Part shown: piece by piece, positions 5,497 to 30,886 of the stretch | How positions within the stretch are numbered: position 1 is the first letter of the stretch | How the letters are laid out: each line of letters opens with the position of its first letter | Source of the DNA: Elusimicrobiota bacterium | GTDB taxonomy: Bacteria > Elusimicrobiota > Elusimicrobia > O2-12-FULL-59-9 | DNA: 58,446 nt | Reading direction: 5' to 3' | NCBI GenBank assembly: GCA_016206405.1 | Contig: JACQRQ010000261.1 | Coordinates: 1 to 58,446, forward strand | Program-made: the position numbers and the translations under genes | Notes under the pieces: model-generated | Database searches by the model: none | Seen by the model: only the letters and a program-made list of their open reading frames with translations | What the model was told of the DNA's origin: nothing

Positions 5497-5524
5497 GATT
5501 CTCCTCGACCCGCGAAACCAGCCA

Positions 5525-12300: not shown

Positions 12301-12824
12301 GAGGCCGGCGGGTCTGAGATTAGGCGCTTTTCCCCAAGCATGACCTCTTCAATGCCCTGCCCGGCCGAATAGGCCCCGTCCGTTGATAGATTCGGCTCAG
12401 CGACCGCCTTCAAGTAGGGGGTCAATTCTCGGGTCCGAATTTGGGCCGCCTTAAGAGCGGTCGGCGGCGCGCCCTTTTGAACCGCCGCGGCGGGAAACCA
12501 GCGCGGGTTTGACGCGACCGAACGCGGTCCCCGCAAATGGATCGTGCCGCCGGTCTTCGTCCGGACGGCAAAAGCGCGATAGGGCCCGGCGGAAAGCGAA
12601 TCGTGTCGGCGGCCGGCCCCGGTCCGGCTCCTGCCCGCCACGGCTCCCAGCGCCTGATAGCAGGGGAGTCCCGGCGCGGTGACGATTAATGCCGCGCAGA
12701 GAACCGTCCCAATCAATTGCAGAGGCAACTTCTTATGCATGATACCTTTGAACAAAAAAAACCGCCCCGAACAAAAACCGGCCGAAAGGGCGGCTGCCGA
12801 AGCTTTCCTTAATGGAAGAGTCAT
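9333..12824 (-). CDS. Giant polytopic membrane protein (1163 aa as ORF), last gene of the giant-protein cluster
   Basis: The ATG at 12824 overlaps the upstream stop (ATGA). An alternative start at 12740 gives MHKKLPLQLIGTVLCAALIVTAPGLPCYQALGAVAGRSRTG, the shared leader. The rest is dominated by 20 or more hydrophobic segments. No enzyme motif recognised. Confidence 0.8.
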   Translation of the reverse strand: MTLPLRKASAAALSAGFCSGRFFLFKGIMHKKLPLQLIGTVLCAALIVTAPGLPCYQALGAVAGRSRTGAGRRHDSLSAGPYRAFAVRTKTGGTIHLRGPRSVASNPRWFPAAAVQKGAPPTALKAAQIRTRELTPYLKAVAEPNLSTDGAYSAGQGIEEVMLGEKRLISDPPASVESGVVAGPLGARAPPAAPESKSHFGKWAGSLSLAGMLSVAAPAAVSAGAAGGLSLSAPIASALSEVVSGLSLALPSLAVTLPAGALYGYLSYKIIQRAARTIAQGKPDPVVGYDTTPLVVGGLALLFFGLGIGSVPGFAEAWPSFSGLIHQTMGVRLFDLPFSVPSAWNPVIFGAHFPLFSLIGSLAALKGSRSGLKRLQGDFEREQKNREAQSESAAMKKPEVRPEASTPSLAASSGEKRESWTAAFQNHFKSLWRVSPVPVESALSRAPEPPGPPLDMVGLVGNAVAKILSVGVFTVTGIAFYVVAMDKAGGPGLALLMSLGSLLSISLTNWTGKLFDENAPVYGMSLSTLVRLAANAAFAFFYDRNFLEWPFMVLLGLSLVNGWILNSIMNGERIVLRDMIGSSSAKIQDPAVQKAHRKIIHERQKTTNAIFALFFVGIQVLFGIFLKGGGWVDAYGASAIYKLGAVAQIPIVLIYLATLPDRAELDQAALTGRAATFTERLKKTGAKSRELLKLLVSMAVSMLFTTPKRWIQRSARTIKEIFSRAFNKGTPADASSASGKPSSVWRYILIAGVTLTAAAVAIWLQSPLVASLAFLVIVPLSPGFKFLWNNAFMRTAMVYTTMGAVVIFPLRNVVLPILAKAAESFPGMAAASHGTGQGLVLGLLIGALFMGQLLGNIAMVNLPDSWKPFSGIYKSQTLAENAKPFHHFARQAVLSALVTGLLALTMPQLGWWSLGAIPAVIYLTAPMLPGTSILRSAMLAGVWAWIYFFLFPQGAAVAPLWKALAATLGSGLTAGIFAAAPYVSEKVWVQGNTASLLSVVALGALYLKFQYVPLLFVALAVIGLFNNPAGHILTSYFREESYSKKYYEFRARIDAVQSAFFAIALSFGYGFLRYLAGVSGTPAAFQSVAMPVIGAGLVAMAVLYWGAPKVYPLKSAAAKSVSEKFPNWLRKIFNGRDGETLAGLKEIAGGWTSLFRPKGPRNG

Positions 12825-15523: not shown

Positions 15524-18264
15524 GAGGCTGAATTCTTCTTAAATTTCTTGAGCTCCTGCTCCTTGGCCTCAAGATCCCGCTTATTTTCCTTCGCCGTCTT
15601 CTTCTTCTGCGCGGCCTCCTTTTTGAGACCGCTCAATTCAGAATCATAAAGCTTTCGAATCTTGCTCTCGGCCGCCGACAGTAGATTCCGGGCCTTTTCG
15701 ACCACGAATTTCAGGCCCTTTTCCCAGGCCTCTTTCACCAACTTTTCCCGCCTTTTCTTCAGCTCAGCCAGCCGCTTTTTCTTCTCCATCCCGATAACTT
15801 TCGCCTTCTTCAGCGACTCTACTTTCTCTCGCCTCTTGACCGTCTCCAAGTTTTTCTTCATTTCTCGGATTTGCTTGGCCATTTCCTTTTGCTTCTGCAG
15901 TTTGGCCAGATACTGCTGGAGCTTGGGGTCGCCGGGCTCTTCCCGGTTTTCCCAGAAGTCGTTGAAGTCCTCATCGCTCTCCATGGCCTCAATGAGGCTG
16001 GTCAGCTTTGAAACGGACGCGTCGGAATCCTTCTGCGTGTAGAGCTCGTTGAAGCCGTATGTCTGCGTGGCGTAAACGAATTCGGCGCCCGTTTTCACCG
16101 AGGGACGGAGGCTGTAGTTCTGCTTCTGCCGGAGCGTCAGGCTCAGGAGTTTGGCCAGAATTCTGCCCCGCCAATCAAAGGGAGCGTTGCCATACCTGAA
16201 GAGCAAGGCCAGCACTTTATCGGTTTGCCCGTTTTCCTTAAACGACAGCACGGCGTCCGGTTCGATATTCACTTGATACTTGCGCTTGATGCGAGGGTCG
16301 GCGATGTTGCCGACCAGTTTGAACTTAGAGTCCCCCGCGATATTGGTGAAGCCGCGGATGGCGTTTTGGGCGAGTTCCTCGGGCGTTTTGGGGAACCAGT
16401 GCTGCTGATATAAGTTATAAACGACCGCCTTGGCCCTTTCCAACATTTCCTGGCTCGTCTTGCGCCACTGCGGATTCTTGCGCAGATAAACAAAAACGGG
16501 GCTCAAATTGACCTGCCGGCCGGGCTGCAGAGGGTTGTTCCATATTTCCTCCAGCAGGCGGATGCCGGCATGCACGTTCAAAAACCGGATTTTCCCAACC
16601 CGGAGATTCCTTAAAATATCGATGATCACAGCCCGGGTGATGATGCCCAGATACAAATAATGCTTCCCCTCTCGAACCTCCGAATTGCCCTGAATGATGA
16701 AGCGGCTCCTTCCGGCCTCCTGCATCGGCAGCCAATAATCAACATAGGAGCGAAGCTTGCTGAAATTGATCTTGATGGGTTTAAGCCATTGGTCCCCCAG
16801 AAAGCCGCGCAACGCCTCCAGCAGCGACTGGCCGTCGCCGACGATTTCCTGGTAAGGCCCCTCCCCGTTTTCCTTATAGTCGGGCAATTTCCCGATCATT
16901 TCCGCGACCAATTGAGGGAACCTTTTGGGATACTGGATCACCATCATGTTCTTCGGCTGGTTCTTGACGTCTTCTTTGCCCGCAAATCGCTCCACAAATT
17001 GCTTGTCGACCGCTCCCAAAAGCCGGGTGACATTTCTTTGGAGGCTGTATTTATTGACGCTGTAGGAAAGCTTTTCATCGGAAGCCGGGTCATCGGGCGT
17101 CAGCCGGTAAAATCGCAGCATGCGCAGAGGGTCTCTTTTGCCGGCGCGGTCGATGGAGCGGTTGAACTGCCCCACCCAGGCCGTTTTTTGAGTTTTTTTG
17201 AGTCCAGGCTTGAATTGAACCCTGAAAATGTACTCGCCGTCAAAGCTCCATTGAACGTCTCCCTGAGCCAGTTTGCCGCTTTCCACCAGAGAGCCGGTGA
17301 CGCTTTCGGCCAGGCCCTGGAGCATCTGCTTGTGATTATCCGAGAAACCGTCTTGGTCCGGAATGATGGATTTGGTTTTATCGGATTCAGCCGTTTGAGG
17401 AGCGCTGCTCTCGCTTTGGCCTTTGCCCTGCGCATAGATCATGGCGCCGTTGTAGGCCACGATGAGCATCCGGTTGTTTTGCCGGTATTTCAAATGGTTT
17501 AAGAGAACGCTGTTTATGTAATCCGGGCCCTCAGCGGTGTAAAAAACAACGCCGTAGCCTAGTTCCAAAGACCGGTCGATGGCCTGAGCGATTTCGGGAG
17601 CGGCGGGCTGGCCGTTGAAAACATCGGGGATGAAAATGATCCTGGCATTTTTGGCCGGTTCTTCGCTGGGACCGGAATTTTCCGCCACAGGCGGTTTGGG
17701 CGGAGGAGGCGTCTGCGGAGGCTGAGCCGTGGGGGGCTTATCCTCAGCGGCGCCCTCAGCTTGCCGACCGGAAGCCTTCGAGTCCGAGTCCGCCGGGTGG
17801 GCCTTTTCGTCGCCGGCGTTTTGCTCGACTGAACCGGCCGCCACAATACCCTCGCCGGCGTCCTGAGGGGACGCGTTTTGATACATCTCCTCCAAACGAT
17901 CGTTCAACCCCTTCTGCGGCGATGCATGTGAATCGGATTCCAAAGACAACTTGCCGGCGACGCTTAAAGCCTCGACGGGAGAGCCCGCCAATGCTTTCGT
18001 GATTTCCTCCGTTGAAAGGACGCGTCCGGCGATAGAAGGCTCCGTCCGGCCATCGACTCTGGGAACTTTGAAATCCTTGGGAAGCTGAGGCTTCATCCCC
18101 GCGGAGCGACCCGGCTGAACGGTCGCCATCCGGAAAGCTTTCGCCTTTCGCGCCGCCCGCGAGCGGACCAGCGGTCCCGCCGCCCAAACTTCGGCGGCCG
18201 GAAAAGGCAGCGCCCCCCACAGCAGGCTCATAGTTAAAACGATGGAAATTATTTTTTTCGTCAT
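15520..18264 (-). CDS. Giant exported protein (about 914 aa from the ATG at 18264) with a Pro-rich linker, a degenerate HAD-like module and a Lys-rich coiled-coil tail
   Basis: ORF 15520..18366. The ATG at 18264 (AGGAAAG 7 nt upstream) gives MTKKIISIVLTMSLLWGALPFPAAEVWAAGPLVRSRAARK. Linker PPTAQPPQTPPPPKPP, then ARIIFIPDVFNG, which is HAD-like with no nucleophile Asp. The last ~130 aa are K/E-rich heptad-like. Upstream of 18264 lies a hairpin terminator, which argues against the longer ORF. Confidence 0.8.
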   Translation of the reverse strand: MTKKIISIVLTMSLLWGALPFPAAEVWAAGPLVRSRAARKAKAFRMATVQPGRSAGMKPQLPKDFKVPRVDGRTEPSIAGRVLSTEEITKALAGSPVEALSVAGKLSLESDSHASPQKGLNDRLEEMYQNASPQDAGEGIVAAGSVEQNAGDEKAHPADSDSKASGRQAEGAAEDKPPTAQPPQTPPPPKPPVAENSGPSEEPAKNARIIFIPDVFNGQPAAPEIAQAIDRSLELGYGVVFYTAEGPDYINSVLLNHLKYRQNNRMLIVAYNGAMIYAQGKGQSESSAPQTAESDKTKSIIPDQDGFSDNHKQMLQGLAESVTGSLVESGKLAQGDVQWSFDGEYIFRVQFKPGLKKTQKTAWVGQFNRSIDRAGKRDPLRMLRFYRLTPDDPASDEKLSYSVNKYSLQRNVTRLLGAVDKQFVERFAGKEDVKNQPKNMMVIQYPKRFPQLVAEMIGKLPDYKENGEGPYQEIVGDGQSLLEALRGFLGDQWLKPIKINFSKLRSYVDYWLPMQEAGRSRFIIQGNSEVREGKHYLYLGIITRAVIIDILRNLRVGKIRFLNVHAGIRLLEEIWNNPLQPGRQVNLSPVFVYLRKNPQWRKTSQEMLERAKAVVYNLYQQHWFPKTPEELAQNAIRGFTNIAGDSKFKLVGNIADPRIKRKYQVNIEPDAVLSFKENGQTDKVLALLFRYGNAPFDWRGRILAKLLSLTLRQKQNYSLRPSVKTGAEFVYATQTYGFNELYTQKDSDASVSKLTSLIEAMESDEDFNDFWENREEPGDPKLQQYLAKLQKQKEMAKQIREMKKNLETVKRREKVESLKKAKVIGMEKKKRLAELKKRREKLVKEAWEKGLKFVVEKARNLLSAAESKIRKLYDSELSGLKKEAAQKKKTAKENKRDLEAKEQELKKFKKNSAS

Positions 18265-18363
18265 AGTGGCTTTCCTAAATTGAAGTTTGCCGGCCCTCTC
18301 TCCATTCAATCTCATTCTAACCCGATTATCCGGCCCCCGCATGGGCCATTGGTCCCAGCAGGG

Positions 18364-18396
18364 CAAAGAAAAAGGGCCTATCGAATCATAGGCCCT
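18364..18396 (-). terminator. Rho-independent terminator-like hairpin between the 1088-aa and 948-aa genes
   Basis: The minus strand reads AGGGCCTAT-GATTCG-ATAGGCCCT followed by TTTTTCTTTG. That is a 9-bp GC-rich stem, a 6-nt loop and a U-tract, starting 40 nt after the stop at 18436. Confidence 0.7.
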
Positions 18397-18435: not shown

Positions 18436-21400
18436 TCAATTTCTTTTCCACAGTTTCCAGCTTTTTAGCCAACCGTTGCTTTTTCCGCTAAACACCAGCC
18501 GGTGCGCGGCAAAAATCTGAAATCCCCCAAAAGCCGTGAGCACCACCGCCATCAAGGTCATGTTCGCCAAGGGCTCGCGCCCGGCCAGAAAAGTGAAGAA
18601 TAGCGCCGTTCCGGCGGCGTACAAAATCTTCTCATAAAGCGTAATGACCCCCTCCATGGAGGCCATATGAGGTTTCATATTATTGTCCGGCTCATACATC
18701 GCCTTTCGCTTCAATGAAAGCCCGATGAAATGAAGCGGCCCGCGCAGCAGGGCAAAAGCCATCAGGCTTCCCAAGGCCCAATTGAGGGCGCCCAACGGAG
18801 TGCCTCCGTAGATGGGCAACGCGCCCCAGAAAAAGAGAAAGCCCAAACCAGACGCCACATACGCCGCCGTACCCACATTTTTCCACCAGTGATGGGTGTT
18901 TTGATTCTTGCTGGGATTAAAAACGATCATCATCGCCCCGGCCAACACTTTGCCCAAAAAGGTGGTCGCGATGATCTTAGGCCATTGGCCCGGCAGATAC
19001 GCGGTCGCGTACTGCAGCAAAGTCAGCAGAACCGCGGGCTCAAGAACCAGGTAGAAATTGAGCGTATTGAAAAGGGTCAGGAAAGGATTATTACGAATCA
19101 ATTTAAATCCCTGCAGGATGGCGGGAGTGGTTTGCCTTAACTGATCATATTGCCGGCGCGTCCATGCCGGCAGTTGCTGAACCCACGAAATCGCCTTGGC
19201 CACAGGATTGCCTATGGCATGGCGGTATCTTTTTGAAAAGGCGAAGGAATACAAGGACATGGTCAGCATCAGCGCCAATACGTAAGGCAGCGGCGAGAAA
19301 GCCCAACCGGCCCCGGCTCCCCGCCACGCATCCATGAGGCCGATGAAATAATCCGCAACATAGAAGCCGGTCACAAATCCCACCGTGTTGGTCAAGACGG
19401 AGTCGATGCCTTCGGTCTTATTGTAAACGGTCTCCGTGGTCCCGACCACGCGTTTGTCGGCAAGGTCCTCAATGCTGTAGTACACGCCCTCAAAAAAACC
19501 GGAAAGACCGGCCACGACGAAAAGCAGCGTCACGTTCAAGGGCATGCCGAGAAGCCACATTCCCGGGATCAAAGCGATCACTACGGCCAATTTTCCCAAA
19601 GACCCCTTCATCATCTGCACGGCCCTGGCCTTGTCCGACCGGGGACCGGCGAAAAACTCGCCCAAGCCGTTGCTGAGCTCAAAAACCATCTCGTATATCC
19701 CGAAGGCGGCCAGAGGGCTTAGGAAACCGGCCGTTAAATGGCCCGTGTATTCGGGCAGCCCGGCTAGGTAGACGCTTAAGCCCGCCGCCATCATCATCCG
19801 GCCGACCTGCAGCACCCACCATTTGATGTTTCTGCTTCGTTCCGGGATAACCCGGGTGAAATACCGGATCACTCCCTCAAAACGCTGCAATCCCCCCTGT
19901 ATCCACTGGGACGCTCGCCCCACATGCTTTTCAAACTTTGGATCAAGATTTAAATGTCTCTCCGCATGGGAAAGGGGAGGCCGGGTCCTGGCGTTCGGGG
20001 CTTTGATCCATCCATGCACGAACCAGGCCGTCGCCGCGACCGAGAGCAGCCACGGCGCATAAGATCCCAAGAAGCTGAGGTCAAAACCGCTCAAGGCGCG
20101 CGGGGCGAGTCCGCCGCTCAACGAGGTCGGGAGAAGCAACCCTCCGGCCATAATGCCGCTCCAGGCGAATTTCTTGATGGCGGGAGCCGGATTCGCCTTC
20201 GCGCTCATCGAAGCCGGCCTTCGGGCCGCGGAAGCTACGCGGCGCAAGAAATTTACCGTGTAAGCGACTTTGGCCTCCGGAAACGGAAAGGCATTGTCCA
20301 AGCCGGCGTCCAAATCCTCGCCCGCGCTGAAAGCGATGCTGCCCGGAAAGGAGCGCGCCATATAGGTATCCGCTCCGAAAGACCCCATCGCGTCGGCAAA
20401 CGTCAGAATTTTTTGCGGATGCACGGTCCGTCCCTGCTGGGCCAGCACGGCGACGACCTGCCGGACGGAATCCGCCTTCGAATACCGGCTGATGGTTAAT
20501 TCGTCGTCCTTAAAGGTGGCGATGTCGGGGAGGCGGCCGGACTTCAGGGCAAGCGCCACGCTGCCGGTCAATGCCTCGATTCCGTTGCGCCCCGGTTTAA
20601 ACCTCAACAGCAGGTCCGCGCGGTTGTCGACTTCAACGTCAAAATCCACGCCCTGCGAAAGCCCCAAAGACCGGGCCGAACGCATGAGGACGCGCCTAAT
20701 TTCTCGCTGCTCCGCCTCCGAGCGCAGCGGGCTTTCAAGCGTGTGAATTTTTTCCTCGGAATCGAACCAATCCAGGCGCGAGCCGCTGCGAGTGGCGAGG
20801 ATGAGGCCGGCCTTGCGCTCCAGGCGATCGATAAAAAGCCGTTTCATTCCCCTCTCGGAATCGAAGGGCCTGGCGGTGATGACGGCCACGGGAATATTTT
20901 GGGCCAAGAGCGCCTCCACCGCTGCGAGCAGGCGCCGCGGGGAACGCTCAACGTCATCGACCACCGTCTTGTCAAAGTCAAATTGAATAAGATCCGGCGT
21001 CCGGCGCTCGTAATACCGGATGAAAGCCTCGTAATCGGAAGGCGATAGGCGCGGTATGCTCAGCGGAGCGGAGGGAAATCTCTTAAGGATAAGCGATGCC
21101 GCCGCCCGTTTCAAGCGGTAGGCCCAACCCGGCGTCGGAAGATCATCAATAAGGGCGGCGGAAAGGTTCGGCGGCTTGCGGCGTGCGTCCGCCTCCGGCT
21201 TGCCGCCGGCGACGGTCAGAGCGGCAGCTTTGTTCTGCGCGTGCCGCGGCGAAGCGCCCCACGCGGACGTTGCGCCGTCCGCTTCCAACGCGGCGCCATT
21301 TTCGTAAATTTCATCAAGGGCCCTCTTCGGCGCTTTCTTGAGCTTCTTATAAAATGCCGGTAAATTTTCAAAGATGCGGCCCAAGGCGGCCGGCCCACGC

Positions 21401-21702
21401 TTTTTCTCGGCGCCTCCGCCGCCGAGCGCCGCAACCTGTGAAACTGAGGCGTAGGCGCCGGGACCGGCGGCAATCGTCGCCGGCAGCGCAGTATTCAGAA
21501 ATCGCGTCTGGATCGCGCCCTTCGGGCGGGTCCCCCGCCGGTGCAGGGAATAAGAAAAAGATTTTGAGGTCCCGGATGAATTTTTGCCGGCGCGGCGCAG
21601 CGAGGCCGCATGCGCTAAGGCCTGATAAGGGGCCAAGCCTGGGGAAATCAATATTAGGGCGGCGACTATTATCGAGGCGGCGATTTTTCGCGTTTTTTCC
21701 AT
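18436..21702 (-). CDS. Giant membrane protein (1088 aa): shared leader, canonical HAD-phosphatase-like module, large polytopic C-terminal domain
   Basis: Leader MEKTRKIAASIIVAALILISPGLAPYQALAHAASLRRAG. HAD motif I LIQFDFDKTVV (20956-20994), motif II-like VAVITARP, motif IV-like FADAMGSFGAD. From about residue 500 onward there are 12 or more hydrophobic segments. The start is 1 nt after the upstream stop. Confidence 0.85.
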   Translation of the reverse strand: MEKTRKIAASIIVAALILISPGLAPYQALAHAASLRRAGKNSSGTSKSFSYSLHRRGTRPKGAIQTRFLNTALPATIAAGPGAYASVSQVAALGGGGAEKKRGPAALGRIFENLPAFYKKLKKAPKRALDEIYENGAALEADGATSAWGASPRHAQNKAAALTVAGGKPEADARRKPPNLSAALIDDLPTPGWAYRLKRAAASLILKRFPSAPLSIPRLSPSDYEAFIRYYERRTPDLIQFDFDKTVVDDVERSPRRLLAAVEALLAQNIPVAVITARPFDSERGMKRLFIDRLERKAGLILATRSGSRLDWFDSEEKIHTLESPLRSEAEQREIRRVLMRSARSLGLSQGVDFDVEVDNRADLLLRFKPGRNGIEALTGSVALALKSGRLPDIATFKDDELTISRYSKADSVRQVVAVLAQQGRTVHPQKILTFADAMGSFGADTYMARSFPGSIAFSAGEDLDAGLDNAFPFPEAKVAYTVNFLRRVASAARRPASMSAKANPAPAIKKFAWSGIMAGGLLLPTSLSGGLAPRALSGFDLSFLGSYAPWLLSVAATAWFVHGWIKAPNARTRPPLSHAERHLNLDPKFEKHVGRASQWIQGGLQRFEGVIRYFTRVIPERSRNIKWWVLQVGRMMMAAGLSVYLAGLPEYTGHLTAGFLSPLAAFGIYEMVFELSNGLGEFFAGPRSDKARAVQMMKGSLGKLAVVIALIPGMWLLGMPLNVTLLFVVAGLSGFFEGVYYSIEDLADKRVVGTTETVYNKTEGIDSVLTNTVGFVTGFYVADYFIGLMDAWRGAGAGWAFSPLPYVLALMLTMSLYSFAFSKRYRHAIGNPVAKAISWVQQLPAWTRRQYDQLRQTTPAILQGFKLIRNNPFLTLFNTLNFYLVLEPAVLLTLLQYATAYLPGQWPKIIATTFLGKVLAGAMMIVFNPSKNQNTHHWWKNVGTAAYVASGLGFLFFWGALPIYGGTPLGALNWALGSLMAFALLRGPLHFIGLSLKRKAMYEPDNNMKPHMASMEGVITLYEKILYAAGTALFFTFLAGREPLANMTLMAVVLTAFGGFQIFAAHRLVFSGKSNGWLKSWKLWKRN

Positions 21703-21703
21703 T

Positions 21704-24700
21704 TCAAGTGAGAAAATGCGTGATATAAAACAACACCGTCGACCATCCCACGAAACCCAACACGCCGGCCATCAGGGACTTTTTCAAAGCGCCCGCTTTA
21801 TACATCTGCCAGAAAATCGCCGCCTGCAAGGTGATCCCGCCGATGGTGCAGGCCAAGGTGTTGATCCAGAACCACGGATTGGTCTTCGCCACCAAAAGCA
21901 AAGTGGGCAATAAAAAGGCGTTGGCCAGCAAGGGCAGCGCGACATAAAACCAATCCATGCCGGCCAGCAAGTGCGCGTTGCCGCTCTTTATATTTTGGTG
22001 ATTGGTCCAAAGCTGCTTGGCGGGAAAAGATAAAAATATCACATTGGCGGCAAAATTGAGAGGGCCGGTGACGGGCTGATAATGCGCGGCGACGATGGGC
22101 GGAAGGAAAATCCATGAACTCAGCATGGTCACCGCGGCCAACGCCCATTTGATCTTGGTGTAATTGTCCATGTCCTTGAGTTGATTAATCTTGGACTGAA
22201 GCCATTTCACCTTGTGGGACAGAGGCGAGAGCGTGCGCTTAAGCGCGTGGACTCGGGTTTCGCCTGGAGCCAATTCCATCTCGAAATCCGTTTTTTCTCC
22301 GGGAAGCCGAAAGCGCACAGGGGCCGGTTGGTCGGAGGGATTGGTCAGTACGGCGAGAGCCACATCTTGCATGATGGCTTCATTTTTTGGCCAGAGAAGA
22401 TACCCCGCCCAGGCTTCATCCCCCTGGCCTTGAATTCGCTCCGGCTGCGAAAAATTATTCAATAAGCGCCTCTTAAGTCTCTTTCCAACGGCATCGCCTT
22501 TTCTGCCATCGACGGGCTTGAATATTTCCTCAACCCTTTCAACGAGCGCGGCGTCGCCGGCCGGAGTCAACCAATGCGCGGCCGGAAACAACCGCGCCAT
22601 CCAATGGATCCCCGCGACCGGCGCCGGAAGGGCCAAAATTTCCCCGATGCCTCCTTTTTGCCAATGCTGAAAGACCTGCCAATCGATGGCCCGGCCCGCC
22701 TCGCCGGCTTTGCCGCTTTCCAAACGGGTTTGCCATCCGATTTGAGAATAATATGGAAGCCCGCCGGAGTCCTCCAGCGCGATGTCGCCCTGATTGATGA
22801 CGGCGTCGAAACCGGCGGCCGCCAGCGACCCGCGGTGAACATTGCCCTGGGCTAGAAAGGCGATCCCGGGATATTCCATTTTAAGCTCGGATATCAATTC
22901 CTCCCAAAACTCCCGGGCCGGCATTTGAACTCCGTGGTTTCTGGCAAATTCGCCGTTGAGCAGAAGCTCCGGATTTTCTATGCGGAACCCATCGATGCCG
23001 AATTTGGAAATCCAATGCCGCACGGTTTCCAGAGCCCACCGCCGAGTCTGAAGGCTGGAATAATCCAGTTGCGCCGCGTTGGGATGATGGCGAAGCCGCT
23101 CCCCTTCTCTCATGGCGCTCAGCCGGACCAACAGCGGCCCCTGTTCGGGATGCAGGATGGGGGCCCACCCTTCCGGAGGCCGGCGCAATTCCTCCGCGGT
23201 AGCCTTCCGGTGGATGATCATGCCGATGCTTTCAGTCAGGAAAGCGGAATCCAAAGAGACGTGATGCAAAGGCAAATCCATGATCACGCGCAGAGGTTTT
23301 TCCACCCTGGCGGAAGCTTGGCGGACCCTGCGGGTGAATGCCGCCAAATCCTGCGAAGCGCCCAGCGCCGGATTGACCAAGCCAAAATCAATGGGCGCAA
23401 AAGGAGCGCTGACATCCCTGAGCATTGCCGAACCGATGGAAAACGTATTGACGTCCTGTTGGTCCGCCAATGCCGCTATTTCCTCCGGCGACCAAGCGCC
23501 CAGCGGCTTCGCGGTCTTGGGCAGTTCATAGACCTGCATTTCTCGCGCCCACGCGGATAGATTGTTCTTCATGTGGCTTTGCTGCAGCTCAGGAACCTTC
23601 TTTTCCAGAAAAGCCGTAAGCTGCCGCCGGAGATCGTGAGGATTCTTTTTAATGTCCAGAAGGGATTTGAGTTCGGACCGGACAAGACCCGCCCATGATG
23701 AAAAAGAGCTCAAAGGCTGGAGCAATTCCTCGATCATGTAGGCGAAGAGCTGCGGCATTTGGCCGGACAGGGCGCGGTCGATATCCTCCGACTCTGCTCT
23801 CTTTCGCGCGGCCTCAAGGCCTTCGTGCCGACTCTCCAATTCATCGGCCTCTTGATTGAGGCGCCGGATATCGCGGTCCAACTGCGTCAAGGCGTAGAGA
23901 ATGCCCTCCAGACCGGCGGAGGGCGCAAACCGGCTGCCGCGGCCCAAATTAAACGCGAACGGCGCGAGCCTGGAATGGTCCGGCAACAGAGGCCCAACGC
24001 TGAGAATCTGTCGCTCCTCCAAAGACAGCCGCCATGTGTCCAGATTTTTTTGCCGGATTTGAATCTGCTGTTGACCGGCGTCGCGGCCGGCGGCGCTCTC
24101 CGATGAGCTTAACAAGGCCGCGGCGAAGGAAGGAATTAGCCCGCGGCGGTTGGCCCGCTGCACCCAGCCGGAAATCCAGCTCAACTGCCGCTTCGCCTTG
24201 AAATTCGCCCATTTTTGATCGGAGCGCTGATTCTCCAGCGATAGAAGGCGCAGATAAAGCCTCAAGCTTTCCTGAATGACCGCCGGCTTATTCTGCAGCA
24301 TCGCCTTCAGGTTTTCGAGCAGGGATTCGGGATCTTTCGCGTCGTCGGCGGCGAAAATGTTCTCAAGCCATATCAGAAGCCCCGGATATTTTTTGATCTC
24401 CTCCACGTTGAAACGGCTGAAAAACGCCTCCAAATAGGGAGCCGGCAGAGCCAGAATCATCCGGCTGGACATGCGCTGGCGCTGCAAAAACTCCAGCAAC
24501 GGGCTCTCGGAGCTGAACGGCGCGGCGGAACCGAAATCCAAACTCACGGTCGCCGCCAATTCGGGTAAATTATTTTTTTGCCTGTCGGCGTTGACTCCAT
24601 CCAGTTTTTTAAGCGCCCAAGCCAGCCTTTCCAAGGCGACCGCCTCCGTCCCCCCTTTTTTTCCCAAAACTTCCTCGTTCCAAACCGAAGAATCACTGGA

Positions 24701-27700
24701 CCCGGTCGGGTCCTTTTTGGACCCCAAGCGGATGAGTACCGCGCCGGCAGGAGGCTCCACAACCTCGGTTTCATCTTGAATCGGAAACACCAGCCCGGGG
24801 ACTCGCGCCAAAAAGCCGCTTTTTTCCAAGACCTCATTTAAGGCCGTCATTTTATTTTCGGGAATCGAAAGCGTAATATAACCGGGTAGAACGGCGCGCA
24901 CCGCGCCGCCCAGTTTGCGCACCTCTTTGAGTGGAAAATCAACCCTCTCCATGGCCCATGCGGCCTGTCCCTCGGATGCGGCGGTCTTGTCGGGACCGTA
25001 CAACAATATGGCATCGGAGAGAATGGATTTCTTGCCCGGAGGCGCCTCCACGATGAGATGCAAGCCGCTGATCTCGGAGTCGGCGCCGGCGATGCCGGCT
25101 GGATCGGGCGAAAGCCGGAGAGGCACTTTTTGGATATTGGCGAAAATCTGCGCCAAAAGACCAAGTTCATCATTGGGATATTTTCCCAATTCCTTGTATT
25201 TTTCCACGAAATCCAGCATCGCCTTGCGAATGGCGGCGGAACTCCTCAACCGCGGGATCACCGCCTGGGGACGCAGCCGGACCAACTGCACGTAAAACCG
25301 GATAACCTGCGCCGCGATCCGCCGGCCGACCGGATCGTCGCTGGCGGCCTGAACGGCGTGCACGAACGCTTCGTCGGGCAAAGAATCGGCATCCGCCAAG
25401 CCCTTCTCGCGCAGGGCATCGAGAGCCAGTTCGCGGATATTGACCCTTTCCATCGGATCGGAAACGATGGAAGCCAGAAAAAGGGTGATTGGATCTCCCC
25501 AAGAAATTTTCTCATCCACGGTCTCGCGCAGAGCCCACAGCACGCTCCACCGGGTGAATTTGGATTTCGAGGGGTTGTATTCCTTTAGAAATTCCAGCAG
25601 GACCGGCAGGGACTCCTCCGTGTGGCCGCGCCGCGCCAATCCCGCCGCGGCGTAAAGCCGCGCCTGCCCGGAAGATTCCTTAAAAATCTTCTGCAGCGCG
25701 TCGGTGGATTCCGGGGATTCAATTTTCCACAAAGCCTGAAGCGCGTGCTGCCGCAAACGCTCGTCTTGGGCGGCGCCGGCCTGCGTCAAAGCGGGGACGG
25801 CCGCCGCGGTCCGGAACTCGCCCAAAGCGAAGACCGCGGCGGCGCGGTTAAGCCAGGGCTCGTTCTGGTCGAGAACCGTTTCAATAAATGCGGGCAGAAC
25901 CTTCTTGACCTCCGCCTCAAAAGCCGCCCTCCAAACCTTTTCCAGCTCCCTGGCTCTTTCCGGCGTCAACTCCAGAACGCCGGTCTTGGCCAAAAGCCAG
26001 CCATACTCCTCGTTATCGAGAACGGGCCTGCCGAATGCTCCTTTTGAAAAGCTCATGATTTTCGGCGCGGCATCGAGAATAATGGCTTTGAGCGGCGGCG
26101 GCGTCTTCTCCCAGGAAGGGTGAGAGCGGACTTGCTCCAAAACCTTTTCCACGGCTTTTGCCCGCGCGCCGTCGAAAGGCGCATTGGAAAGCGCCTCCAT
26201 ATCACGGTAGCGGCGTATCGCCTGATAGCCTTTAGGCTCGCTGAAGATTTTCGTGGCCAATTGCGCCGCATGATAGGCGTGCGCCTGGCCGGCGCCCATC
26301 CCCTGATGCGGAAGCCCCATACTTATGGCCGTCGCCATCAAAATGTATTTTATCGACTGGTGAGCGTTTTCAGAGAAGAACTTCCTGGCCTCACCATAAT
26401 CTTTGCCGCGAGCCCAAAGCAGCGTATAAATGACGGTCTGATAAATGGCGCCGCCTATCCCGGCGATCATCGGAGAAGCCATAGATGTTCCGGACATCCA
26501 AACGTAGCGCGCCCCCTTGACCACGACGTCGCACAAGTCTTTCACGCGGCTTGATCCGCCGGCGGCCAAAACCCCCTCAAATTCTCCTTTCAAGTAGAAG
26601 AAGCACTCCTTGAGCCACGATCGCACGCCTCGAATAGTGCCGCCGACCGCGGTGATGTCCGGTTTGGAGACGTATTTACCCCGGACCGGGTCCCATACGT
26701 CTCCCTGGCTGCTGAAACCCGACAACTCTCCGAGATGGTCTTTTTCTCCCTTGGTCAGGCTCGCGACCGCCATGACGGCCGGGTTGGCGGCCGGAGAACC
26801 GACGGTCTGTCTTTGGGGACCGCTGTTTCCGGCGGCGACGGATACGAAAACGCCGGCTTTTTCAATCACCCTGCCCAAAAATTTGGCGAGTTCCGAACCA
26901 GGATGTCCCTCGCTGCCCAGGCTCAAATTGACGACCTGCAGCCCCTTCTGGAGCAGGGCCACCACGCCGCTTTGAATGACGCTCATTCTCGCGCCGCTTT
27001 CGTCATCGGCGAAGACCTTGGCCATGGTGGCTTTTGCGCGGGGCAAAAATCCCTGAATCCATCGCTTTCGGAACAGGCTCACCGCCTTGCCGCCGATGAT
27101 GGATATCACATGCGACCCATGCAGCTGCGGATCATCGGACTTCTGGTTGACCAGGTTTACCTCTTCGACGTGCGAAATCATGGGGTGCGACGGATTGCGG
27201 CCGGTATCCACCGCGCCGGCGCTAATTTGCGTCCGGGAAAGGCGCGGCAGGACGTAGACTAAGGACGCGAAGAACTGCCGCAGGCGCCGGAGCAAGGACA
27301 AAGGCTTGCCGTCCGGGCCGCGCATTTGCGAAACGATTTTCCAGCCCGCTTTGAGAGCCGCCGCGTATGAAATCTCCCCCCCGTCGATCCCTGTTTCCCG
27401 GAGCGGGTTGAAATGGTGCAGTTGCGGACTGATGTGCATGAGCGAGCTTACGCGGTACTGGAACAAGGTGGAAGGAATTCCTCTCTCCCGGAACCGGTCC
27501 TGCATTTGAGCCGCGACAACCTCCGGAACGCTCAAAAAAGCGTGGTTGCCGTATTTTTCCTCAATCACCGTGATGATCTCAGCCCCTTTGTCGAGGAGCT
27601 CTTCCAAAAAGGGCGAGCGGCCGGAAGCCGTGTCCGGAACCACGGTTCCACCCTCGATGCCGGCCCGGATCAACTCGCTTTTTGCCTCGACCGCCTCCTC

Positions 27701-29722
27701 CTCGTTGAAACGCGGCCAAAGAATCGATTTCTGGATCGGCGCCGGCAGCTTTATTTTTATTTCCACGTGAGGTTCCTGTTTTTGAAGGAGCAAAAAGGGA
27801 GCCTCCACGCCCGCCCGGACGGCCTGAATTTTGAATAGACCCGCTTGCGGGCTGCGCCAGGACTCAAAAAGCCGAGTTAAAAACTGCACGTCCGTTCCTT
27901 CCGGCAAATCGATGGCCGCGATTCCCCCCAGCTTCAAGCTGCCGTAGAGGGCATCCAGCCATTCAAACGCCATCTCCCCTGTGAGCCGGTATCTCGCCTC
28001 CGCCGCCTGCCATATTTGGGTGATTTGCGCGCGCTCCAGACGCTCCATGTCAAGCGGGTTTTTGGAGTCCACCGTCTCTGCTGGAATGTCGGGAACGCCT
28101 CTCAACTGCGCCAGGCGCCGGGCGGCCTTGCCTTGGAAATAGCGCTCCACCTCCACAATGGCGGAGGCGGCCTGGGATTTAATCTCCGGGGACATCAGGT
28201 TTTCGAGAATCCGGACGGAGTTTTTTATCCGCAGCATCCTGAAACGGCGGCGGTTTTCCTTCGATTTCAGGGCGGATAGGATGTCCCCCGCAGGCAAAAC
28301 GGAAGATTCAAACCGCGCCTGGTGGCCCGAAAGGAAGTCGATGCCCGTTTGCTCTTCGCTCATCTTGGCCGCCGGGCTGAGGTTGTCCGGCGCCGCATCT
28401 TGCCCCTGCGCGTCTTCCATATAATATAGGCCCACGCGGTACGGAAAATTGGAGGCCAGAGTCGCCGACCATCGATCCAGAGCCGTTTCCAACGCATTGG
28501 AGAAAGCCTGAGGCGCCACCGGCGTGGGCTTGCGCCACAGATTCGAGGCCCACCGGTATAGATACGCCTCCACCGGCCAGAAGGCTTCCCACAAGGCGTC
28601 CATCGCATCCCGGAGACTTCCGCGCGGCTCGGGCATTCCCCGGTTGAGATGGTTCAAGTAGACCGTGCCGAATTCGAGCGCGCGCCTTAACTCGCCCGGA
28701 GACAAAGTGACGATCGGATCAATGAAAAATTTCCTCTGCTCCCGGTCGTAATAAAAAGGCTTCCAAAACCGGCGGTATTCATCCGGAATAAGCTGCAGCG
28801 GCCCGGAAAGCTCTTGCCCGGCGACGACGCCGTCATTTTCCGTTCCCAGCCATGTAGGGTCGATGACGCCCTCAGCGGCCAAACGACGGATGTTCTCCCG
28901 CGCTTGATACGGCAGAAGCTCGCCCCTTTTTTTCCAGCGGTAAATTTTCAGGCCCAATTTCCAGGCCAAAACGGTCCCGAAGCCCAACAGGCCGGCCTCA
29001 ACGGCGATTTGAGGCATCGCGAAAGCCCCCGTCGCCCCGAATGCGGCCGAAGGCGAAGCCATAGCTCGCGCGGCGCTCACGGCTACCAGGCCGGCGGCCA
29101 GCATCGCCGATTTAAGAGGCGAAGGAATGCGGCTTGGAGCGCTTTCCGGCTTGGCCGGCGGGGCGGGAGAAGGAGCGATCTCAAAATCCAGATTGGAAGG
29201 CGCGGAGGGCCTGAAATGCGGCCGGATTCCGGCGGAGGTCGCATCCGGAGCCATGACGGCGGCGCCTTTCAAATCGGTCGATGGCGAAATTCCATCAAAA
29301 GCGGCGGCTTCTATCCAGTAATCTTCGGAGGAAAGGTCGCCCTCAATTCGACCGCCTTTCCCGGCGGAGAAATTTTCCGGGACGGATACGGCGCCGCCCG
29401 CGGACGGTTTCGCCAAAAATCCGTGGACTCCGGGCAAAACGGAGAAAATTTCCTTCACCCGGCGCCAAACGGCCGGGCGCTCCGCCGGCTTCATGCGCGT
29501 CTGAAAATTCTTGACGTCCGCAAGTCCAGACACCCGCGCCGGCGAGTTTCTGCGAAGACCGGCCCTGGGCGCGGCGGGCGATGTCCGCATCCGGACGCCG
29601 CGCTGAGACCGGGCGCGGACCGCGGCCATAGCCTCATAGCAGCCCGGGCCCGGCGCCGCCACGATCAGAGCCGAAGCCAGCAGCGCGGCGGTTATTTTCT
29701 TTAAAAATCTCATGTCGGCCAT
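21704..29722 (-). CDS. Giant multidomain protein (ORF 2684 aa): shared leader, S8 subtilase, HEAT repeats, GH13-like module, C-terminal multi-TM anchor
   Basis: ORF 21704..29758. The likely start is at 29722 (MADMRFLKK, GAGAGGG upstream) or 29713. Leader ...ALIVAAPGPGCYEAMAAVRARSQRG. Domain evidence is given in the three sub-features below. The C-terminal ~150 aa hold about 5 hydrophobic helices. Confidence 0.85.
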   Translation of the reverse strand: MADMRFLKKITAALLASALIVAAPGPGCYEAMAAVRARSQRGVRMRTSPAAPRAGLRRNSPARVSGLADVKNFQTRMKPAERPAVWRRVKEIFSVLPGVHGFLAKPSAGGAVSVPENFSAGKGGRIEGDLSSEDYWIEAAAFDGISPSTDLKGAAVMAPDATSAGIRPHFRPSAPSNLDFEIAPSPAPPAKPESAPSRIPSPLKSAMLAAGLVAVSAARAMASPSAAFGATGAFAMPQIAVEAGLLGFGTVLAWKLGLKIYRWKKRGELLPYQARENIRRLAAEGVIDPTWLGTENDGVVAGQELSGPLQLIPDEYRRFWKPFYYDREQRKFFIDPIVTLSPGELRRALEFGTVYLNHLNRGMPEPRGSLRDAMDALWEAFWPVEAYLYRWASNLWRKPTPVAPQAFSNALETALDRWSATLASNFPYRVGLYYMEDAQGQDAAPDNLSPAAKMSEEQTGIDFLSGHQARFESSVLPAGDILSALKSKENRRRFRMLRIKNSVRILENLMSPEIKSQAASAIVEVERYFQGKAARRLAQLRGVPDIPAETVDSKNPLDMERLERAQITQIWQAAEARYRLTGEMAFEWLDALYGSLKLGGIAAIDLPEGTDVQFLTRLFESWRSPQAGLFKIQAVRAGVEAPFLLLQKQEPHVEIKIKLPAPIQKSILWPRFNEEEAVEAKSELIRAGIEGGTVVPDTASGRSPFLEELLDKGAEIITVIEEKYGNHAFLSVPEVVAAQMQDRFRERGIPSTLFQYRVSSLMHISPQLHHFNPLRETGIDGGEISYAAALKAGWKIVSQMRGPDGKPLSLLRRLRQFFASLVYVLPRLSRTQISAGAVDTGRNPSHPMISHVEEVNLVNQKSDDPQLHGSHVISIIGGKAVSLFRKRWIQGFLPRAKATMAKVFADDESGARMSVIQSGVVALLQKGLQVVNLSLGSEGHPGSELAKFLGRVIEKAGVFVSVAAGNSGPQRQTVGSPAANPAVMAVASLTKGEKDHLGELSGFSSQGDVWDPVRGKYVSKPDITAVGGTIRGVRSWLKECFFYLKGEFEGVLAAGGSSRVKDLCDVVVKGARYVWMSGTSMASPMIAGIGGAIYQTVIYTLLWARGKDYGEARKFFSENAHQSIKYILMATAISMGLPHQGMGAGQAHAYHAAQLATKIFSEPKGYQAIRRYRDMEALSNAPFDGARAKAVEKVLEQVRSHPSWEKTPPPLKAIILDAAPKIMSFSKGAFGRPVLDNEEYGWLLAKTGVLELTPERARELEKVWRAAFEAEVKKVLPAFIETVLDQNEPWLNRAAAVFALGEFRTAAAVPALTQAGAAQDERLRQHALQALWKIESPESTDALQKIFKESSGQARLYAAAGLARRGHTEESLPVLLEFLKEYNPSKSKFTRWSVLWALRETVDEKISWGDPITLFLASIVSDPMERVNIRELALDALREKGLADADSLPDEAFVHAVQAASDDPVGRRIAAQVIRFYVQLVRLRPQAVIPRLRSSAAIRKAMLDFVEKYKELGKYPNDELGLLAQIFANIQKVPLRLSPDPAGIAGADSEISGLHLIVEAPPGKKSILSDAILLYGPDKTAASEGQAAWAMERVDFPLKEVRKLGGAVRAVLPGYITLSIPENKMTALNEVLEKSGFLARVPGLVFPIQDETEVVEPPAGAVLIRLGSKKDPTGSSDSSVWNEEVLGKKGGTEAVALERLAWALKKLDGVNADRQKNNLPELAATVSLDFGSAAPFSSESPLLEFLQRQRMSSRMILALPAPYLEAFFSRFNVEEIKKYPGLLIWLENIFAADDAKDPESLLENLKAMLQNKPAVIQESLRLYLRLLSLENQRSDQKWANFKAKRQLSWISGWVQRANRRGLIPSFAAALLSSSESAAGRDAGQQQIQIRQKNLDTWRLSLEERQILSVGPLLPDHSRLAPFAFNLGRGSRFAPSAGLEGILYALTQLDRDIRRLNQEADELESRHEGLEAARKRAESEDIDRALSGQMPQLFAYMIEELLQPLSSFSSWAGLVRSELKSLLDIKKNPHDLRRQLTAFLEKKVPELQQSHMKNNLSAWAREMQVYELPKTAKPLGAWSPEEIAALADQQDVNTFSIGSAMLRDVSAPFAPIDFGLVNPALGASQDLAAFTRRVRQASARVEKPLRVIMDLPLHHVSLDSAFLTESIGMIIHRKATAEELRRPPEGWAPILHPEQGPLLVRLSAMREGERLRHHPNAAQLDYSSLQTRRWALETVRHWISKFGIDGFRIENPELLLNGEFARNHGVQMPAREFWEELISELKMEYPGIAFLAQGNVHRGSLAAAGFDAVINQGDIALEDSGGLPYYSQIGWQTRLESGKAGEAGRAIDWQVFQHWQKGGIGEILALPAPVAGIHWMARLFPAAHWLTPAGDAALVERVEEIFKPVDGRKGDAVGKRLKRRLLNNFSQPERIQGQGDEAWAGYLLWPKNEAIMQDVALAVLTNPSDQPAPVRFRLPGEKTDFEMELAPGETRVHALKRTLSPLSHKVKWLQSKINQLKDMDNYTKIKWALAAVTMLSSWIFLPPIVAAHYQPVTGPLNFAANVIFLSFPAKQLWTNHQNIKSGNAHLLAGMDWFYVALPLLANAFLLPTLLLVAKTNPWFWINTLACTIGGITLQAAIFWQMYKAGALKKSLMAGVLGFVGWSTVLFYITHFLT
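22240..23400 (-). other. GH13 (alpha-amylase family)-like module with substituted catalytic positions, inside the 2684-aa protein
   Basis: Region I-like PIDFGLVNPALGASQDLAAFTRRV...LRVIMDLPLHHVS. Region II-like WISKFGIDGFRIENPE has Glu where the nucleophile Asp is expected. Region III-like GIAFLAQGNV has no Glu. The C-terminal beta-sandwich-like stretch is VALAVLTNPSDQPAPVRFRLPG...ELAPGETRVHAL. Confidence 0.55.
25290..25900 (-). other. HEAT/PBS-lyase-type helical repeat region, inside the 2684-aa protein
   Basis: Repeated pattern of roughly 30 aa: NRAAAVFALGEFRTAAAVPALTQA..DERLRQHALQALWKIESPESTDALQKIF..ARLYAAAGLARRGHTEESLPVLLEFL... Confidence 0.6.
26350..27260 (-). other. Subtilisin-like (peptidase S8) domain with a complete catalytic triad, inside the 2684-aa protein
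   Basis: ISAGAVDTG (Asp codon 27206-27208), LHGSHVISIIGG (His codon 27119-27121), oxyanion VAAGNSG, and WMSGTSMASPMIAG (Ser codon 26483-26485), in the canonical D-H-N-S order. Confidence 0.8.
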
Positions 29723-29773
29723 ACTGGCTGCCCTCTCAACGCCGACTGCTTCTCTCATCGACCGTCCGGACGG

Positions 29774-30886
29774 CTACTGAATGACGAACAAGCCGGAAGG
29801 CTCGGCTTCCGGCGCCTGTTGCGCTATTTTCAATTTCTTGGCGCCGCCCTGGCGGCCCAGATTCAGGGGCATCGCGAGACCAAAATGAAAGGCCGAGTTT
29901 TTGCCCGCCCAACGGCCCGAAGCTACGGTCTCGCCGGTCACATACAAATTCCAAGCCCCCCACTGGTAACCCGCGCCGAGCACGGCGCGCACTTGGCCGG
30001 CGTTGACGGCGGCGGTGTGCTCTCCGATGGTCGGAAAAAGCAGCTCGCTTTGAAATTCGTTGGTGATGCGCGCCCGCACCGTCGCTTGACTATAGCTGTA
30101 CCCCACGCCGCCGAAAGGCATCCAAGCCCCGAAGGAATCGCTTAACAAGGCGTTGACGCCGAGGCTTTTGATCTTCCACGCCAGCTCTCCGCTGTTGACG
30201 CTGTCGAGGTCGAAGCCTTCTTGGATTTCGTCGCTGGATTTGCTGTTGAATACAAGCGCTCCAGCCATGTAATTGGCTGATCCCGTGACGCTGCAAAGCG
30301 GAAATCTGCCGCCAAAAAAATGCCTGCGCGCTTCAAAACCGAGCGCGGCCGTATGCAGCTTGGCCTCCGTGTCGGGACTGGGTTTTTGCTTGGGGGTGGA
30401 AAGAAAACTGAGCTTGACGGCGGCGTCGAAACGCGATGGAAGGCCCACTCGCATTTGAGCGTTTAAATCCGGGAAAGGCAGGCTGGATTGAAAGCCGCCC
30501 TTGATGTCTTTTTCCCTCAAGGTTTGCAGCCGGAATTCGGGAAACTGGCCGGTATCCAGAGGCACGTTGCCGAGCCCCAGATTAAAAGCCGCCATCAACT
30601 GCAGCGGACGCAATTCGACGGGAGGCGCCAAAACGGAGGCTGAATTGAACGCCAACCCGGAAACCGCCTCCTCGCTGAACCACTTGGAAATGCGGGCGAA
30701 TTCGCTTTCAAGGGTGACTCCCTGGGCGCAGGAAAGAGACGTCCGCAAAAGCGAAAAAGCGAGGAGCGCCAAAAACGATGTCCACCGTTTCTTTGCCGGT
30801 CCCGCCGTTAAAGTACCTATCTGCATAAATTCGCCGATATACGGAGAGGCTTCAATCCTGCGACGCAAAACATCCACAAAATCCAA
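29774..30886 (-). CDS. Putative outer-membrane beta-barrel protein, first gene of the giant-protein cluster
   Basis: 370-aa ORF starting at TTG 30886 (GAGGAA 6 nt upstream), or at ATG 30826. Signal-like KKRWTSFLALLAFSLLRTSLSCAQG. After that come many short amphipathic strands (AAVKLSFLS, TAALGFEARRHFF, WMPFGGVGYSYSQATVRARI, RAVLGAGYQWGAWNLYVTGE, AFHFGLAMPL). The stop is 15 nt before the 2684-aa ORF. Confidence 0.55.
   Translation of the reverse strand: MDFVDVLRRRIEASPYIGEFMQIGTLTAGPAKKRWTSFLALLAFSLLRTSLSCAQGVTLESEFARISKWFSEEAVSGLAFNSASVLAPPVELRPLQLMAAFNLGLGNVPLDTGQFPEFRLQTLREKDIKGGFQSSLPFPDLNAQMRVGLPSRFDAAVKLSFLSTPKQKPSPDTEAKLHTAALGFEARRHFFGGRFPLCSVTGSANYMAGALVFNSKSSDEIQEGFDLDSVNSGELAWKIKSLGVNALLSDSFGAWMPFGGVGYSYSQATVRARITNEFQSELLFPTIGEHTAAVNAGQVRAVLGAGYQWGAWNLYVTGETVASGRWAGKNSAFHFGLAMPLNLGRQGGAKKLKIAQQAPEAEPSGLFVIQ

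Follow-up and report, generated by a model that had tools for sequence, protein, structure and literature searches.

What does an uncultivated bacterium do with a gene of some 8 kb whose product appears to carry a protease and an amylase fold on one chain? The question is raised by a 58,446-nucleotide stretch of DNA from Elusimicrobiota bacterium (assembly GCA_016206405.1, contig JACQRQ010000261.1; the window, below, means this whole stretch), in which one open reading frame (ORF) of 2684 codons, the giant gene, occupies the minus strand. A preliminary description, made from the letters of the DNA and their translations, had read its product as a single protein combining an intact subtilase, HEAT-like repeats, a GH13-like module and C-terminal membrane helices. 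We find one intact gene with one intact catalytic site, that of the subtilase, and a GH13-derived module which has lost its catalytic residues. The protein may act as a membrane-tethered processing protease and scaffold working on itself and/or on partners, a reading to which we assign a probability of about 0.4.

The ORF comprises 2684 codons and a stop codon, with no internal stop over 8 kb. It had first been presented without regard to its strand, and the position 29722 taken as its end is the ATG of Met13, within an ORF which reaches 29758. A GAGAGG box resembling a Shine-Dalgarno sequence lies 9 nt upstream of this ATG. Public annotation of the same 58,446-bp contig places the start at Met16 (ATG 29713), giving 2669 residues, and protein P0069 is identical to residues 16-2684. 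The start codon is likely to be one of these two, with a product of 2,670-2,684 residues. The features named in the preliminary description were all present in the translated sequence in the order given there.

The integrity of the gene was assessed with a second metagenome-assembled genome (MAG) and with distant relatives. In Elusimicrobia bacterium RIFCSPLOWO2_12_FULL_59_9, a GTDB representative genome (contig MGUX01000060.1, L001), the same ORF is present from residue 966, where the contig end truncates it, to the stop codon, and is followed by the same two downstream genes. The two copies aligned with no gaps in 1719 codons at 97% identity, with 68 synonymous and 48 non-synonymous differences (ratio of non-synonymous to synonymous rates, dN/dS, 0.21). 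The ORF is also present in an ENA contig, and guanine-cytosine content is uniform across the giant gene and its neighbours. Relatives were collected by a HMMER search of the C-terminal 1200 residues against 1.84 billion representative proteins, which found only 57 proteins. By BLASTP the window protein aligns collinearly with P0003 (2898 residues), at 24-33% identity, over the full course from leader to final helix, as it also does with P0008 (2477 residues); the fragments P0040 (1671 residues) and P0006 (HEAT and GH13) are also collinear with it. Because the second assembly aligns without gaps and distant relatives are collinear, the giant is one real, intact gene under purifying selection, and a frameshift or chimera is very unlikely. 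That several genes were merged by frameshift or chimeric assembly might be suspected from the metagenomic origin of the contig and from two frame changes within the giant homologue at locus L065, but the same ORF in the second MAG and the ENA contig, the even base composition and a domain order repeated in P0003 and P0008 at 25-33% identity leave this explanation scarcely credible. The single 2684-residue protein of the preliminary description thus stands, no frameshift or assembly error splitting the gene having been found.

With respect to the protease, Pfam Peptidase_S8 (PF00082; S8) matched residues 848-1144 with an E value of 6e-29 (101.7 bits against a cut-off of 21.8). All four motifs are present, namely AVDTG (D851), HGSHV (H880), AAGNSG (N978) and GTSMASP (S1092), with the Asp/His/Ser order and the oxyanion Asn intact, and the best PDB matches of the domain are subtilisin-like proteases. 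The claim of an intact subtilase is therefore borne out, and this is the only module of the giant with its catalytic residues intact; from its motifs it looks active. The equivalog cut-off for the IteS/IetS anti-phage S8 peptidase was missed (22.8 against 900 bits). The HEAT-like repeats proposed to follow the subtilase were likewise recovered above curated thresholds at residues 1295-1363 (HEAT_2 at 53.9 bits against 27.7, E 2e-14; HEAT_PBS at 26 against 20.9), and the PDB matches of this region include alphaRep.

The GH13-like module fared differently. The GH13-related region was located at about residues 2116-2374, where the Pfam Alpha-amylase model (PF00128) gave no match in the window protein, even at E<=10 on the isolated segment. 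Weak NCBIfam GH13 matches were obtained around residues 2223-2310 (treS_nterm at 2.4e-6 on the isolated segment), together with a weak PADLOC GlgB match. Proteins of about 660 residues form a family whose homology to the module is nevertheless clear (E 1e-30 to 1e-37) and which does match Alpha-amylase (about 1e-25) and the alpha-amylase 4GKL (6e-25), these matches being those of the modules in P0002-P0012. In a MAFFT alignment of 18 module sequences the family regions read DFVPNH, DGFRVDMAY, IAEAY and GNHDE. In the window protein and its 98%-identical twin these are DLPLHH (region I, 2161), DGFRIEN (region II, 2258) and LAQGN (region III, 2302), and NHD of region IV is deleted (near 2376). 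The nucleophile Asp is thereby replaced by Glu and the acid/base Glu by Gln, the third Asp is gone, and these losses occur only in the window protein and its twin among the 18; the FPRAYN and GGSPYSI motifs are missing from both as well. P0003 and P0008 keep all three catalytic residues. The precomputed Pfam list of the twin does not include PF00128. Because the nucleophile, the acid/base and the third catalytic Asp are all lost, the GH13 module of the window protein is almost certainly a pseudo-enzyme. A (beta/alpha)8 barrel with a C-terminal beta domain would be expected for it from its homologues; a single-sequence AlphaFold model of residues 2000-2684 had a mean predicted local distance difference test score (pLDDT) of 39. 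A homologue search with the GH13 alignment returned only P0058, P0001 and generic pullulanases. Of the earlier claims, profile support was therefore direct for the S8 domain and came through homologues for the GH13-like fold, and a protease plus an amylase, taken as enzymes, fits P0003 and P0008 and not the window protein.

Among the 57 proteins, S8 motifs were found in P0001 (a 98%-identical fragment), P0003, P0008 and P0040. In the relatives, Pfam searches recovered two S8 domains with HEAT between them and then Alpha-amylase (E 1e-13 to 1e-21), all within a single protein. In the fuller members the order is leader, Pro/Ala-rich linker, hydrophobic hairpin, a domain of about 500 residues termed X, subtilase 1, HEAT repeats and subtilase 2, then the helical extension with the GH13 alpha-glucan-active module and a bundle resembling MEX1_N and PQ-loop domains. 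Wherever a relative carries a source name, it is that of an Elusimicrobia or Elusimicrobiota MAG, and the family is known from metagenomic assemblies only. A metagenome scan with the GH13 module alignment gave 59 loci, one of which has a membrane domain of the P0012 type described below. The giant fusion is rare and the stand-alone GH13 module common, because none of these loci carries S8, HEAT or X within 10 kb. The architecture of S8, HEAT, GH13 and membrane ends was not found described in the literature searched, its parts being known families, which is in keeping with the earlier remark that a protease and an amylase fold on one chain had no described precedent.

Two relatives differ in their integrity. 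At L065 (4209-10461) the giant homologue containing P0040 goes on in two other frames, the shifts lying near 9120 and 9850, so that the locus is either a pseudogene or affected by sequencing errors. At the P0008 locus (JGI 3300047160) the protein ends without a membrane domain; a 335-residue gene without Pfam match shares a 4-nt overlap with its stop codon and may encode the membrane part as a separate protein.

Residues 1500-2100 had been taken for generic helical or coiled-coil sequence, and homology to the relatives indicates instead a pre-protease segment, the scar of a deleted S8 domain and an extension of the GH13 family. In BLASTP, window residues 1270-1650 aligned with P0003 1283-1667 and window residues 1776-2670 with P0003 1990-2887. 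The second subtilase has been deleted from the window protein, because the corresponding part of P0003 (about 1667-1990, some 320 residues) has no counterpart in window 1650-1776. From about residue 1913 the sequence is that of the helical N-terminal extension which all members of the GH13 module family possess, and it carries the PF.F...SAGLEG(F/I)LY motif at 1947; the peptide RRLNQEADELESRHEG..., which had served as the example of coiled coil, directly follows this motif. A conserved segment of about 100 residues precedes each S8 domain in the family (for example GYITLSIPENKMTALNEVLEKSGFL). To our reading its pattern resembles subtilase pro-domains; no Pfam Inhibitor_I9 match was obtained in the window protein.

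The C-terminal helices had been regarded as a mere anchor, and are instead a conserved transporter-like domain. Five hydrophobic helices lie between residues 2537 and 2684. BLASTP relates the domain to that at the C-terminus of P0003 (8e-7), and it also aligns with those of P0002 and P0012. In the gene table of P0003 a PF28566 (MEX1_N) match stands after Alpha-amylase without a mark (E<=1e-5), and P0012 and P0074 have faint MEX1_N matches. In P0012 and P0074 the domain comprises some nine helices and contains the pattern P(x)Q...N...G-V-S...GN twice, whereas the window protein and P0003 have one repeat, so the five-helix domain of the window protein corresponds to half of the nine-helix domain. 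The window domain itself gave no Pfam match, the Pfam set searched apparently lacking the PF28566 model. PQ-loop (PF04193) was seen below threshold in two of the five aligned domains (E 0.014-0.5) and not in the window copy. A PQ-loop/SemiSWEET assignment was considered and set aside. A profile of the membrane domain against the PDB returned nothing relevant, hhalign against three SemiSWEET sequences from the PDB gave a probability of 0.4%, and an AlphaFold model built from five sequences (pLDDT 63) had no Foldseek match in the PDB at E<=0.001. The putative transporter assignment draws on the precomputed MEX1_N matches in relatives and on genomic context.

That context comes from two Elusimicrobia genomes, one with P0012 and the other with P0074, both fusions of a GH13 module with the nine-helix domain; in each, genes for an MFS transporter and a GH77 protein come next. 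In both loci (L004, 293-6950; L064, 10001-16307) the order is the fusion of GH13 with a faintly MEX1_N-like domain, MFS and GH77 of amylomaltase (MalQ) type, and this looks like a conserved three-gene maltodextrin unit. P0033 (1251 residues, Logan assembly) joins this GH13 module to a starch/glycogen synthase domain, Glyco_transf_5 (6e-57); its N-terminus is hydrophobic, without a basic n-region. According to an earlier report, the MEX1 maltose exporter is confined to Plantae and has no homologue that could be identified outside them (PMC2246286). The C-terminal family might be a bacterial MEX1 counterpart fused to GH13 and, in the giants, to one or two subtilases and HEAT repeats, giving a single-chain degradosome which would couple polymer breakdown to translocation of the product, and of which the window form would have lost the sugar chemistry and kept protease and scaffold. 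We regard this proposal as speculative and rather doubtful.

At the other end of the protein, the leader reads MRFLKK-ITAALLASALIVAA-PGPGCYEAMAAV and resembles a signal peptide, with a site of the Ala-x-Ala type. Its motif is common to the downstream genes of the cluster and to P0003, P0008 and P0002. A lipoprotein reading of the leader Cys was rejected, as the preceding residues are unlike a lipobox and the Cys is missing in the 1088-residue downstream protein and in P0008. Residues 45-215 are rich in Ala (15%), Pro (12%), Ser (11%) and Arg (10%), with about 15 Arg/Lys within the first 60 or so residues of the linker. The hydrophobic pair which follows (about 215-270) is moderate (Kyte-Doolittle about 1.35), and the matching segments of P0003 and P0008 are clearly hydrophobic. 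The roughly 550 residues described as devoid of motif after this pair remain so. This X domain, of about 570 residues, had no Pfam, NCBIfam or PDB match in the window protein, its profile had none against the PDB, and Pfam gave none on the X domains of the relatives. It aligns with P0003, P0008 and P0040 at 18-23% identity. Just past the N-terminal hairpin P0008 (SHELEHF) and P0040 (RHELYHF) have an HExxH motif, which is lost in the window protein (LEFGTVYLNH, residues about 365-375, about 28634-28666) and in P0003. A metalloprotease reading of the domain was accordingly dropped, there being no HExxH in these two proteins and no metalloprotease profile match.

Table 1. Coordinates of the giant gene, its parts and the adjoining genes in the window
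Feature	Residues	Position	Strand	Basis or remark
Whole ORF	1-2684	21704..29758	minus	2684 codons + stop; ATG 29722 or 29713
Leader	13-47	29618..29722	minus	MRFLKK, hydrophobic core, PGPGCYEAMA/AV; Ala-x-Ala site
Arg/Pro/Ser/Ala-rich linker	48-214	29117..29617	minus	composition
Two Ala/Gly-rich hydrophobic segments	215-272	28943..29116	minus	followed by basic KIYRWKKRG
Family-specific X domain	273-840	27239..28942	minus	homology to P0003, P0008, P0040
Subtilase (Peptidase_S8)	841-1150	26309..27238	minus	Pfam and motifs
HEAT/ARM-type helical repeats		25259..26308	minus	Pfam at 1295-1363; homology of relatives over 1270-1650
Segment before second subtilase, with S8 deletion scar	1501-1780	24419..25258	minus	homology to relatives
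Region with helical N-terminal extension of GH13 module family	1781-2110	23429..24418	minus	extension from about 1913
GH13-derived module and C-terminal beta-rich part	2111-2530	22169..23428	minus	regions I-III seen, IV deleted
Five-helix membrane domain	2531-2684	21707..22168	minus	homology to P0003 C-terminus
DUF6588 gene, upstream of giant		29774..30886	minus	secreted-looking, beta-rich; Pfam 28.5 bits, cut-off 27
1088-residue protein gene, downstream		18436..21702	minus	start 1 nt past stop codon of giant
Three genes (948, 900, 1163 residues)		9333..18366	minus	related leader, then Arg-rich stretch

The giant stands second in a closely packed series of genes on one strand, which begins with the DUF6588 gene and continues with genes for proteins of 1088, 948, 900 and 1163 residues (Table 1). 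Synteny between the DUF6588 gene and the giant extends over three lineages, namely the window, L002 (36% identity, 9e-71) and L065, where a DUF6588-like gene lies upstream at 1758-2792. At the P0008 locus a 345-residue gene without Pfam match occupies this position directly upstream. For the DUF6588 protein a PDB search returned no match. The five large cluster proteins all begin with related leaders, of which three read LI..APG..CYQAL.AV, and directly after the leader come 4-6 basic residues per 20. Within the window the exact leader motif is confined to the cluster genes; it also heads P0003, P0008, P0002 and the gene downstream of P0003, and in P0003 and P0008 the Arg/Lys-rich stretch is absent. 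Leader and basic stretch together could be a lineage-specific sorting or docking signal.

The 1088-residue protein has a weak HAD-IIB match (E 0.04, DFDKT near residue 238) and a C-terminal membrane domain of several helices, and the 1163-residue protein has many hydrophobic helices. The 948- and 900-residue proteins (12821-18366, minus strand) end in long Lys/Glu-rich tails, and a DLVIADFKT stretch of the latter resembles, in our reading, a PD-(D/E)xK nuclease motif and is a candidate only. No family or PDB match was found for the 948-, 900- and 1163-residue proteins. The flanks (1-8128 and 31686-56380) encode Rho, DNA polymerase I (PolA), an M23 peptidase, a PfkB kinase, an ABC ATPase, SMC, phosphofructokinase (PFK), MltA, NamZ and phosphoenolpyruvate (PEP) carboxykinase (PEPCK). 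With core chromosomal genes as neighbours a mobile element or prophage was rejected; the 58 kb contain no tRNA genes. An anti-phage defence system was also rejected, PADLOC matches being at domain level only and none falling on the neighbours, and no secretion-system genes were found near the giant.

Taken together, the window copy is a decayed member of its family in which subtilase 1 was kept, subtilase 2 deleted, the GH13 module inactivated and the membrane domain reduced to the half-size, five-helix form. Under the reading we prefer, the giant would act as a membrane-tethered serine protease, with the HEAT repeats and ex-glucanase modules providing surfaces for binding or scaffolding without catalysis. 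Its partners would be the co-transcribed DUF6588 protein and the four large proteins bearing the same leader, and the giant would probably process itself and/or these cluster partners inside a lineage-specific envelope assembly. Substrates, complex, self-processing and the side of the membrane are parts of this reading which we infer. Several observations weigh against it. The spacing of about 115 residues between N978 and S1092 has to be set beside the predicted activity of the subtilase. In the GH13-derived part dN/dS is 0.49 (from only 18 substitutions), a higher value which could signify decay and not a retained binding role. The large neighbouring proteins are entirely dark, so that the envelope assembly is guilt by association. 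Lastly, the topology signals appear to conflict, the basic flanks pointing to a cytoplasmic body and the leader and secreted partner to a periplasmic one. For this reason the earlier statement that the chain is anchored at both ends holds only in part: hydrophobic segments are present at both termini and make it plausible, and the signals for the side faced by the body disagree.

This conflict bears on the view that the body is cytoplasmic and serves glycogen or maltodextrin metabolism at the inner membrane face, as chloroplast starch breakdown feeds MEX1, with the window copy as a regulatory or structural remnant. Lys/Arg number 8 in the 31 residues after the N-terminal hairpin and 8 in the 37 before the C-terminal bundle; the loops have 1 and 3 on the same side and 0 on the opposite side, a distribution which under the positive-inside rule would put the body of 2,260 residues in the cytoplasm. 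The fusion of GH13 to glycogen/starch synthase in P0033, the GH77 neighbours and the lack of a signal peptide in P0012 are also consistent with such a role. Bacterial subtilases are mostly extracytoplasmic, however, as those with segments resembling pro-domains usually are, and the leader of the giant is like a cleavable signal peptide. The DUF6588 partner looks secreted, signal peptides are clear in several of the stand-alone module proteins, and in P0002 and P0074 a leader without any other N-terminal helix places GH13 outside despite a basic flank. We judge a cytoplasmic role to be fairly unlikely.

Alternatively, the chain might be a polyprotein precursor, inserted into the membrane, which the subtilase cuts into an N-terminal membrane piece, a protease-HEAT piece and a piece made of ex-GH13 and membrane domain, and this would be compatible with a processing protease. 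Subtilases commonly self-process, and the segment of about 100 residues before each S8 domain would suit a pro-domain. The same idea has been proposed for giant Omnitrophota proteins bearing S8 and C39 peptidases (bioRxiv 10.1101/2023.11.21.568195). The missing Inhibitor_I9 match argues against it, as does the L065 homologue, which is split by frameshifts and not at domain borders; we hold this version to be doubtful. An active bifunctional scavenger, that is, a surface or periplasmic protease and alpha-glucanase whose C-terminal domain imports the sugar product, is plausible for P0003 and P0008, in which both S8 domains have their catalytic residues and the GH13 Asp/Glu/Asp is complete. The MEX1_N match of P0003 and the MFS and GH77 genes beside P0012 and P0074 point the same way. 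In the window protein the GH13 carboxylates, FPRAYN and GGSPYSI are lost and neither Alpha-amylase nor PQ-loop is detectable, and for this protein the scavenger is improbable. A tethered processing protease and scaffold remains the reading we prefer.

If this is correct, Elusimicrobiota have a lineage-specific envelope cluster built around a rare giant of protease, HEAT, glucan enzyme and transporter-like parts. The intact relatives and the decayed copy would then amount to a natural experiment in which multi-enzyme giants shed activities and keep the scaffold, and the GH13-MEX1_N-like fusion beside MFS and GH77 would offer a testable clue to how MEX1 arose and works. In the literature searched, neither the conserved cluster nor a bacterial MEX1-type domain, if this is one, was found described. 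The window protein itself, with one predicted-active subtilase and a GH13 pseudo-enzyme, is of more modest value.

Among known systems, membrane-anchored subtilases such as the mycosins of the type VII secretion system (T7SS) and site-1 protease have the same S8 Asp-His-Ser order and oxyanion Asn and are membrane-tethered, and site-1 protease chains are among the PDB matches of the giant's S8 domain. The giant differs from mycosins in missing their equivalog cut-off (TIGR03921; 42.7 against 278.75 bits) and in some 2,400 extra residues (HEAT, GH13-derived module, polytopic C-terminus). The nearest solved relatives of the GH13 module family are the alpha-amylases 4GKL and 3DHU, and regions I-III are recognisable in the window protein. 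In contrast to these, the module family has its own helical N-terminal extension of about 200 residues with SAGLEGFLY, and the window copy lacks the catalytic Asp/Glu/Asp. The SLC3 heavy chains rBAT and 4F2hc are inactive GH13-like ectodomains coupled to heteromeric amino-acid transporters. By analogy, a dead amylase fold coupled to a transporter-type membrane domain may suggest a scaffold, chaperone or binding role here, although there is no sequence relationship and the giant is one bacterial chain which also carries a protease and HEAT repeats.

The likeness to MEX1 and PQ-loop proteins lies in PF28566 in P0003, faintly in P0012 and P0074, and in an association with maltose and alpha-glucan enzymes that fits MEX1 biology (PMC2246286). 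The differences are the one repeat of the window copy, its lack of a Pfam match, the hhalign probability of 0.4% and PQ-loop matches in relatives that reach only E 0.014-0.5. Giant Omnitrophota proteins combine S8 and C39 peptidases with HEAT repeats and many transmembrane helices, and self-cleavage has been proposed for them (bioRxiv 10.1101/2023.11.21.568195). Those proteins are 10-30 times longer and have other enzyme sets, the word "amylase" occurring 0 times in that text. Compared by description only, they share with the giant an uncultivated lineage of groundwater type, a very long ORF and the combination of S8, HEAT and transmembrane segments, and these Omnitrophota giants are its nearest conceptual relatives.

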